From assembly GCF_041248615.1 (NCBI RefSeq), contig NZ_CP158426.1: a stretch of 64,000 nt of DNA; one strand, given 5' to 3'. The notes under the pieces are model-generated. The model was not told the origin of the DNA. It saw only the letters and a program-made list of their open reading frames with translations, and did no database searches. Source of the stretch: Escherichia coli. GTDB taxonomy: Bacteria; Pseudomonadota; Gammaproteobacteria; Enterobacterales; Enterobacteriaceae. Position 1 is the first letter of the stretch. Each line of letters opens with the position of its first letter. A program made the translations under genes and the position numbers. This document shows, in pieces, positions 60,467-60,793 of the stretch.

Positions 60467-60793
60467 TCAGGGACGTGATGGCGTAAAGATAAATTGTCTC
60501 TTCACTCCCTGACGGGGACTATTCTTTTCAAATCTCCATTTCGCCATGGCCTTCACCACTTCATCACGAAACAAATTATGAGGCTCTGAGCGGAGAAAAA
60601 CGATCCGTGTCACAGTCCCGTCAGCACCAATATCGAACTTAACCTCAACCAGCCCCTTGATATAATTTGCTGCAGCATATTCCGGATATCGTGGATACAC
60701 CGTCACTAATTGCCGGGGCTCATCAGCTTTTTGCTGCGAGCATCCCACTGCCAGGGCAGATAACAGAAAAAGTAGTGAAAGGCGTCTTTTCAT
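60467..60793 (-). CDS. Lipoprotein with TonB C-terminal-like domain
   Basis: Start at MKRRLSLLFLLSALAVGCSQQ (lipobox LAVGC); C-terminal region resembles TonB_C fold motifs (YPEYAAANYIKGLVEVKFDIGADGTV). Confidence 0.55.
   Translation of the reverse strand: MKRRLSLLFLLSALAVGCSQQKADEPRQLVTVYPRYPEYAAANYIKGLVEVKFDIGADGTVTRIVFLRSEPHNLFRDEVVKAMAKWRFEKNSPRQGVKRQFIFTPSRP

Follow-up and report, generated by a model that had tools for sequence, protein, structure and literature searches.

The window, a stretch of 64,000 nucleotides of Escherichia coli DNA (contig NZ_CP158426.1), contains a lambdoid prophage that reads from right to left, and on its late-gene strand lies a small gene whose product combines a lipoprotein signal with a TonB C-terminal (TonB_C) domain (Table 1). 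The frame is a genuine open reading frame with an ATG start and encodes 108 amino acids. The initial annotation had described a lipobox protein of 109 residues, in which the lipobox was right and the length had included the stop codon; as an observation, the TonB-like lipoprotein gene that it had recorded is confirmed. A copy with 100% identity is present in NZ_CP033635, and the gene of phage 21, CPT_21_73, annotated there as "TonB C-terminal domain protein", is 96% identical. The same value, 96%, was obtained for positions 59711-61109 of the window as a whole when compared with the right end of phage 21 (OL657228).

Table 1. Position of the TonB_C lipoprotein gene and of the surrounding features in the window (minus sign, complementary strand).
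Feature	Position	Strand	Remarks
P21-type holin gene S	63611-63826	-	Upstream of the TonB_C gene
Lysozyme gene R	62385-62918	-	Upstream of the TonB_C gene
Rz i-spanin gene	61921-62403	-	Pfam Phage_lysis (PF03245), 5e-28
Rz1 o-spanin ORF	61962-62168	-	Embedded in Rz; lipobox and proline-rich stretch
Truncated ORF, 95 aa			Between Rz and the TonB-like gene
Upstream non-coding region	60794-60960	-	Homologous in the window/phage 21 and 70% alleles; flanking genes differ
TGTCAGAATAAGAC: extended -10-like element (TGn-CAGAAT) and left half of a palindromic operator	60808-60821	-	From the upstream alignment
Ribosome-binding site, AGGA	60800-60803	-	7-10 nt 5' of the ATG; read from the sequence
TonB_C lipoprotein CDS, 108 aa	60467-60793	-	Phage 21 CPT_21_73; RefSeq "TonB family protein" WP_029400675.1
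Signal peptide and lipobox, M1-C18, MKRRLSLLFLLSALAVG/C	60740-60793	-	Read from the sequence
TonB C-terminal domain, residues 26-103 (E. coli TonB 153-230)	60485-60718	-	Pfam, TIGRFAM and PDB searches; AlphaFold2, Foldseek; family alignment
Putative intrinsic terminator	60329-60391	-	Hairpin 60336-60391, then U-run; about 75-140 nt 3' of the stop codon
cos region	59700-59729	.	Phage 21 cosQ at about 59723-59729; phage 21 record end at about 59700; megablast to OL657228
Nu1 gene	58947-59495		Downstream of the TonB_C gene, with the large terminase gene
IS256-family transposase gene	39459-40667		Splits tail-tip gene J

The TonB_C gene in its prophage

The initial annotation had placed the gene in the slot between Rz and cos, and this position is correct, with Rz upstream and the cosQ of phage 21 mapping downstream of the gene. 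Since Rz carries an embedded Rz1, the spanin pair of the prophage is already complete. The tail-tip gene J of the same prophage is interrupted by an insertion sequence, so that the prophage is probably defective. The C-terminus of the gene J product is lambda-like.

As to the signals for expression, the phage 21 record annotates a ribosome-binding site at the position corresponding to that found here. On the 3' side, the RNA of the hairpin at 60336-60391 folds with -22.3 kcal/mol (z = -3.0, none of 200 shuffles being as good) and, with the U-run that follows, looks like an intrinsic terminator; a scan for consensus terminators did not flag it. The gene is oriented like the late genes and lies between Rz and cos, so that Q-antiterminated late transcription should cross it irrespective of any promoter of its own.

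Another small lipoprotein is encoded in this part of lambdoid genomes, and the initial annotation had itself raised the identity with a Bor-type lipoprotein. The Bor/Iss lipoprotein of lambda, which has a role in serum resistance, is also encoded in the interval from Rz to cos, and in phage 21 the bor gene is adjacent to the TonB_C gene. Bor/Iss is, however, unrelated to the TonB_C lipoprotein in sequence and fold, and bor of phage 21 is on the opposite strand. Moreover, TonB_C was the sole Pfam match of the window protein at E up to 1, with no match to Bor, and phage 21 annotates the Bor homologue as a separate gene, so that the protein is not Bor.

A second assignment that we rejected is that of an o-spanin, by which is meant a small, proline-rich lipoprotein of the outer membrane that works with an i-spanin, is the sole o-spanin of its phage and is as a rule embedded in Rz or overlaps it. 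The protein matched PHROG 1267, a family labelled "Rz-like spanin", at 2e-40. The label is most simply explained as an error carried over from the neighbouring genes, because Rz and Rz1 are both encoded by the prophage and the protein folds as a globular TonB domain; in addition, the chromosomal relatives described below have no lysis genes nearby. No family of the defence models of PADLOC-DB v2 was matched at E up to 0.1.

A TonB C-terminal domain behind a lipoprotein signal

The initial annotation had noted that the C-terminal region of the protein resembles TonB_C, and the searches identify it as a genuine TonB_C fold. The protein scored 50.7 bits with Pfam PF03544 (TonB_C; cut-off 24.6) and 48.6 bits with TIGR01352 (cut-off 27.1). 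In a phmmer search of the PDB, chains of the E. coli TonB C-terminal domain were retrieved with E = 2e-14, in an ungapped alignment of residues 24-103 of the query with chain residues 2-81, and the identity to TonB was about 40% over 80 residues. From the known positions of TonB residues, we take these chain residues to be TonB 151-230. The structure prediction that the initial annotation had suggested gave the same answer. The AlphaFold2 model (mean pLDDT 87, core above 96) shows a three-stranded sheet against two helices, and with Foldseek it could be superimposed on the solved TonB C-terminal domains 1u07, 2gsk_B, 1xx3 and 2grx_C with a probability of 1.00 and rmsd values of 0.9-1.5 Å. The agreement with TonB as bound to its transporters was particularly close, with an rmsd of 1.0 Å in the BtuB complex (2gsk_B) and 0.9 Å in the FhuA complex (2grx_C), and a target-normalised TM-score of 0.92 to the TonB of both. 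The TonB chains of these two complexes consist of 81 and 78 residues, of which 79 and 75 columns, respectively, align with the window protein.

The likeness extends to single residues. From TonB mutagenesis, Y163-P164 is known as the conserved YP motif of the domain, and F180, F202, W213, Y215 and F230 as its aromatic core. The YP motif is retained as Y36-P37 and, in the ungapped alignment, F53, F75, W86, F88 and F103 of the window protein match the five aromatic residues F180, F202, W213, Y215 and F230, four being identical and the fifth, F88, a conservative change from Tyr to Phe. Strand 94-103, the equivalent of TonB beta-strand 3, is present in the AlphaFold2 model. Fold, YP motif and aromatic core are thus common to the window protein and to the C-terminal domain of E. 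coli TonB (approximately residues 150-239; PF03544; 1u07, 1xx3, 2gsk, 2grx).

Other positions have changed. R158, Q160 and R166 of TonB have been linked, genetically or structurally, to contacts with the TonB box and the plug; in the window protein they are replaced by T31, Y33 and Y39, and these positions vary within the family. The family has conserved features of its own, namely an SEPxHLFD motif and, where TonB has V226, a basic residue (R99 in the window protein). We also modelled with AlphaFold2 a fusion of the mature protein, a 20-residue Gly/Ser linker and FhuA residues 1-20, in which, without a TonB positive control, the peptide was disordered and undocked, with a pLDDT of about 50 and no strand.

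The N-terminal parts of TonB are missing. The protein has 108 residues in all and its cleavable lipoprotein signal is the sole hydrophobic segment, so that there is neither a TonB transmembrane anchor nor a proline-rich spacer, and the last strand of TonB (residues 235-239) is also absent. In line with this, the equivalog models for TonB energy transducers (NF008080-NF008084) gave 46-67 bits against cut-offs of 265-448, and the match was confined to the last approximately 80 positions of the profiles. A full TonB energy transducer was discarded on these grounds: lacking anchor and spacer, the protein cannot transduce energy.

In place of the anchor, the N-terminus consists of MKRR, the hydrophobic stretch LSLLFLLSALAVG and then C18, in a lipobox LAVG/C18 with Ser at position +2. 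It has the positive n-region, the hydrophobic h-region and, within the first approximately 35 residues, the [LVI..][ASTVI..][GAS]C motif of a lipoprotein. Cys18 is invariant in a 15-member family alignment and also present in further relatives from five genera, and at +2 all family members have Ser, Thr or Ala. In the Lol pathway of E. coli, Asp at +2 causes retention in the inner membrane. With Ser at +2 and no Asp retention signal, the outer membrane is the predicted destination, and the lipoprotein would be sorted to its inner face, beside the TonB boxes, whereas TonB is anchored by a helix in the inner membrane. The linker from Cys18 to the domain has only about 8 residues.

A family in phages and chromosomes and its Fur-box-like operators

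When 1.8 billion representative proteins were searched exhaustively without a profile, 2930 TonB_C proteins were returned. Among the best matches there were proteins of about 107-133 residues, 31-45% identical and aligned from the first residue. They share the build of the window protein, that is, a signal, a lipobox Cys in most members, a short linker and a TonB_C domain without the last TonB strand. Judging from this common architecture, the TonB_C lipoproteins of about 110 residues are one family, which is spread over phage and chromosomal loci.

In the phage members the gene is always 3' of the lysis genes and 5' of the packaging genes, in at least four different and unrelated packaging/head modules. 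The window/phage 21 allele is found between Rz/Rz1 and cos in the lambda/21-type module; an E. coli allele of about 70% protein identity lies between Rz1 and DUF3950/HNH/terminase genes in Stx/O157-type prophages; a further member (P0038), in an HK97-like module with HNH, is flanked by the gene of a DUF2514 spanin on one side and by HNH/terminase genes on the other; and the allele of Klebsiella prophages (P0042), the third allele, comes after the genes of a holin, a GH108 endolysin and a spanin and before those of the terminase in a P22/Mu_F-like module. Chromosomal members, with phage genes absent nearby, were found in Serratia grimesii, Erwinia typographi, Pantoea, Raoultella and Enterobacter, and on two metagenomic contigs.

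The gene is common in E. coli. The window allele (at least 95% nucleotide identity) occurs in 1224 of 5426 complete genomes, where it is always named "TonB family protein", and the 70% allele in a further 415 of the 5426, including O157:H7, O145 and O111, and also in Stx1a phages. Roughly one in three to four complete E. coli genomes has one of the two alleles; among these are EHEC O157, O145 and O111, strains pathogenic to birds and a strain derived from the probiotic Nissle. The gene is under purifying selection: dN/dS was 0.10-0.12 between the window allele and the 68-70% alleles, a comparison in which synonymous sites are near saturation, and 0.18 between those two alleles themselves; for the gene the range was 0.10-0.24.

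These observations suffice to dismiss a captured piece of tonB without a present role, a reading that GenBank names such as "partial tonB-like" and "TonB fragment" and the defect of the host prophage itself, with an insertion sequence in gene J, might suggest, and that is effectively refuted by dN/dS values of 0.10-0.18 at near-saturated synonymous sites, by a frame intact in more than 1600 E. coli genomes, by an acquired lipoprotein signal that is invariant across the family down to 31-45% identity and by the conservation in relatives of the upstream operator described below.

The window/phage 21 allele and the 70% allele share about 170 nt of homologous upstream sequence, a region that travels with the gene. 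In the 70% allele it contains an entire palindrome, AGAATAAGaCTTATTCT, which scores 13/19 as a Fur box and begins inside an extended -10-like element, TGTTAGAAT. Alignment of the two alleles revealed a 13-nt deletion in the window/phage 21 allele, by which the right half of the palindrome is gone. The scores were obtained by comparing the 70 nt before the start codon with the 19-nt consensus GATAATGATAATCATTATC, for which the alternative form is TGATAATnATTATCA. With the exception of the window allele, 12 of 13 representatives had a Fur-box-like match of 12-17/19, located 29-64 nt upstream, and these scores fell in the top 7% or better of same-size windows in the same loci, mostly in the top 1% or better. 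The highest scores came from the chromosomal genes of Serratia grimesii (GATAATGATTTTCATTACC, 17/19) and Erwinia typographi (GAGAATGATTTTCATTATA, 16/19), followed by those of Raoultella and Enterobacter (15/19, including a perfect TGATAATnATTATCA). A perfect TGATAATTATTATCA is shared by the P0038 phage allele and an Enterobacter chromosomal gene, and at the P0038 locus the box overlaps a promoter-like site, TTGAGT-18-TATTAT. Klebsiella prophage alleles reached 12-14/19, the best being GATAATGTTGATTATCATT (14/19). In the window allele, the best score between -70 and -1 was 9/19, which is background, and no Fur box could be recognised there. A scan of 59500-62000 for consensus promoters found none on the minus strand before the gene; the weak extended -10-like element, read from the sequence, may be the promoter of this allele.

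As far as can be judged from sequence, the candidate operators tie the family to the iron/TonB regulon, and the gene would normally be an iron-repressed cargo with its own promoter, a control that the commonest E. coli allele appears to have lost.

The resemblance to TonB is not new, as it is already annotated in RefSeq, in GenBank, where the names also include "protein TonB", and in phage 21. What is new is the family-wide architecture, the repeated capture of the gene by unrelated phages at one position, the Fur-like operators and the deletion of the operator in the window allele. In the full-text literature, we found no functional study of the prophage or phage 21 TonB-like lipoprotein, or of its family.

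Possible competition for TonB boxes and the alternatives

The initial annotation had proposed that the protein interferes with TonB-dependent receptors, so as to exclude phages or colicins. We consider that it may act in this way by imitating TonB without being energised and by competing with it for TonB boxes, a plausible reading with precedent to which we assign a probability of about 0.4. The protein would be exported and then lipidated at Cys18, and its short linker would keep the TonB-type domain at the periplasmic mouths of the TonB-dependent transporters. There, strand addition to its third beta-strand, the mode used by TonB, would pair it with the TonB boxes of transporters such as FhuA, FepA, Cir and BtuB or, alternatively, with those of colicins on their way in. 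Because the inner-membrane anchor and the proline-rich spacer are absent, the protein would make no contact with ExbB/ExbD and deliver no energy, and an occupied TonB box would mean only competition with the real TonB. As a result, phages (T1 and phi80 types), colicins and microcins would enter less readily by TonB-dependent routes, at some cost to siderophore uptake. Alleles with their own Fur-box-like operator would be switched on alongside the transporters under iron scarcity; given the Fur-type control seen in relatives, the output of the decoy would match the derepression of the transporters.

Several lines of evidence favour this reading. The protein keeps almost exactly the segment of TonB that is present in the chains of the BtuB and FhuA complexes. 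Purifying selection, the recurrence in four phage modules, the high prevalence and the Fur-like operators of the relatives all argue for a function of this kind. There are, moreover, precedents. A small lipoprotein of phage T5, Llp, resides in the inner leaflet of the outer membrane, where its action on FhuA from the periplasmic side leads to the exclusion of phage. Cor of phi80, N15 and HK022 is another phage-encoded blocker of FhuA. For the domain itself, the TonB-dependent import of iron is reported to be inhibited when the periplasmic part of TonB is overproduced (Howard et al. 2001, cited in PMC9841981), and in the presence of TonB-box peptides both killing by colicins and infection by phi80 are reported to be reduced (Tuckman 1992, likewise cited there). 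The exported periplasmic fragments of Howard et al., as described in that citing paper, resemble the phage protein in being a TonB C-terminal domain without energy coupling. They also differ from it, as the laboratory fragments are soluble, overexpressed and of host-TonB sequence, whereas the phage protein is natural, predicted to be lipid-anchored and only about 40% identical to TonB. A later series of periplasmic TonB fragments was reportedly produced by Ködding and Welte.

The parallel with Llp should not be taken as common descent. No relationship to Llp was detected in Pfam at E up to 1, where TonB_C was the only match, or in PHROGs, which gave only TonB_C families and marginal hits (E at least 0.1). 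Llp is specific for FhuA and alters its outer loops, whereas a TonB mimic would be directed at the generic TonB box, and so at many transporters; the Llp gene is early and beside the gene of the receptor-binding protein, while the window gene comes after the lysis genes.

Other data weaken the case for competition. The residues of TonB linked to TonB-box contacts, R158, Q160 and R166, are replaced, and the AlphaFold2 fusion, which had no positive control, left the TonB box of FhuA undocked, a result that carries little information and leans to the negative. The protein is not among the PADLOC models, and in front of the window allele no Fur box is recognisable and the promoter-like element is weak. 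A further difficulty comes from the chromosomal relatives: a TonB competitor induced by iron starvation would hinder iron uptake just when it is needed, which makes pure inhibition less obvious for these members. A pure inhibitor being an odd thing for a chromosome to keep, a role in tuning TonB stays alive as an alternative, and the Fur-regulated chromosomal relatives suggest that the ancestral role was perhaps physiological rather than defensive.

According to this alternative, which we regard as rather unlikely, the protein is an accessory factor of iron starvation, in the form of an outer-membrane lipoprotein under Fur control by which the TonB system is tuned or assisted. Its task could be to keep or sort TonB boxes, to share out scarce TonB among the many transporters that are derepressed or to protect those that are idle; phages would then carry the gene for the fitness of the lysogen, and the exclusion of phages or colicins would be a side effect at most. 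The strong Fur-box-like sites of the chromosomal members in Serratia grimesii, Erwinia typographi, Raoultella, Enterobacter and Pantoea are consistent with such a factor, as is the occurrence of one and the same kind of promoter-plus-gene unit in chromosomal and phage settings. No mechanism is known, however, by which an unenergised TonB domain would aid transport, and the one effect of free TonB C-terminal domains with a precedent in experiments is inhibition (cited in PMC9841981). Furthermore, the commonest E. coli allele, that of the window, lost the Fur-like operator, a poor fit with a strictly iron-tuned role.

It is also unlikely, in our judgement, that the TonB_C fold has been re-used for another partner, for instance peptidoglycan, ExbD through its periplasmic domain or a different protein that offers a beta-strand as ligand, in which case its effect would have nothing to do with competition at the transporters. 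The lack of conservation of R158, Q160 and R166, the family-specific SEPxHLFD motif and basic residue at the place of V226, and the undocked TonB box of the fusion model (again with no positive control) point in this direction, and TonB_C domains are known in other roles, for example in the AgmX/PglI motility proteins, to which the window protein has a weak NCBIfam match. The closest sequence and structure matches are, instead, all genuine TonB proteins and not TolA or motility proteins. Strand addition relies mainly on backbone contacts, so that the altered side chains are compatible with binding, and the Fur-type regulation of the relatives indicates the iron/TonB system.

Still more improbable appears a late function in lysis or release, by which the gene would belong with the lysis cassette and be expressed from the late transcript. 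The protein would then be either a spanin-like or envelope-destabilising accessory or, similarly to Llp, a block that keeps progeny or superinfecting phage from the TonB-dependent receptors of the dying cell. In favour of it are the position of the gene, always the next functional one after holin, endolysin and spanin, on the same strand and in four phage backbones, the spanin label of PHROG 1267 and the absence of a convincing promoter of its own in the window allele. The prophage already has, however, a complete Rz/Rz1 pair, the protein has a globular TonB fold and no o-spanin features, the chromosomal relatives are not near lysis genes, and Fur-type operators such as those of the relatives are typical of independently expressed cargo.

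Competition for TonB boxes, which we prefer to these explanations, could be part of a wider picture that we put forward with more reserve, as a doubtful proposal. The lipoproteins may form a Fur-controlled, outer-membrane-tethered "anti-TonB" family of Enterobacterales that gates the transporters against phages, colicins, microcins and even siderophores. The promoter-plus-gene unit would have been captured repeatedly by phages for exclusion or lysogenic conversion, and the E. coli/phage 21 allele would have been freed from iron control by the 13-nt deletion.

If the protein is not a TonB competitor, the gene is one more annotated cargo gene. If it is, iron uptake would have a modulator that is natural and mobile, and its carriers would have broad-spectrum protection from TonB-dependent phages, colicins, microcins and siderophore-antibiotic conjugates. 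The mechanism of exclusion would be new, namely the mimicry of the energy transducer of the host, unlike that of the receptor-specific Llp and Cor. Such protection, if true, would matter for phage therapy, for bacteriocin competition in the gut and for "Trojan horse" antibiotics.

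Fur-box-like operators upstream of the TonB_C lipoprotein gene

Fur-box-like operators, matching at 12-17 of 19 positions, were found upstream of the TonB_C lipoprotein gene in nearly all the relatives, both phage-borne and chromosomal, and in two of them the operator contains a perfect TGATAATnATTATCA. The 70% allele, which is the second form of the gene in E. coli, carries a palindrome whose right half corresponds to 13 nt that are missing from the allele shared by the window and phage 21.

Features of the prophage and of the relatives' loci (coordinates in the window, unless stated otherwise)
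Feature	Position	Strand	Remark
Side tail fibre protein gene	36233-38038	-	Pfam PF01391 and prophage tail-fibre N-terminal domain
Tail-tip gene J	38771-43999	-	split by insertion at about 39459-40667
83-aa ORF	59851-60102	+	antisense to late genes, just right of cos
95-aa ORF after Rz	61415-61702	-	PHROG 3527 match
Fur-box-like operators	30-65 nt 5' of start codon		relatives' loci L003, L010, L005/L139, L145, L141, L142, L143, L006, L013, L106-L136

Surroundings of the gene and state of the prophage

The similarity to phage 21 ends at about 61109, and the Rz side resembles other phages; the mosaic junction is at about 61110-61130, in the place of bor in phage 21. Next to Rz, the match of the 95-aa ORF covers only positions 139-230 of the 233 of PHROG 3527, a family of unknown function, which suggests that this ORF is what remains of a truncated gene. 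By cos, the product of the 83-aa ORF begins like a signal peptide and ends in a Cys-rich stretch (CDASPIPGCTCPFC); the ORF found no match in Pfam, NCBIfam, PHROGs or PADLOC, and may be spurious.

Inside J lies a gene for a 402-aa transposase of the IS256/Mutator family (Pfam PF00872, 2.7e-119), and downstream of the insertion the lambda-like C-terminus of J resumes in a different frame. Since J is thus broken, the prophage is probably unable to form infectious particles. The Lom homologue (38104-38703) is intact and adjoins the side tail fibre gene, in whose product the N-terminal domain is followed by six collagen-like triple-helix repeat matches (PF01391, 2e-48).

Related proteins and their annotation

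Among the best matches of the exhaustive search with the TonB_C lipoprotein were also proteins of 370-1300 aa (P0036, P0043, P0048, P0056 and others). Because the query matches 3-6 separate stretches in each of them, these proteins may contain tandem TonB_C domains.

PHROG 1267, the phage family matched by the window's protein, is labelled 'Rz-like spanin', its members being TonB_C lipoproteins; the label was probably transferred from the adjoining spanin genes. In Escherichia phage Lys8385Vzw (L167), the gene at 3001-3327 is recorded as 'protein TonB', and its annotated start lies 45 nt 3' of the true one, so that the signal peptide is largely lost. When a start is called this late, the lipoprotein nature of the protein is masked.
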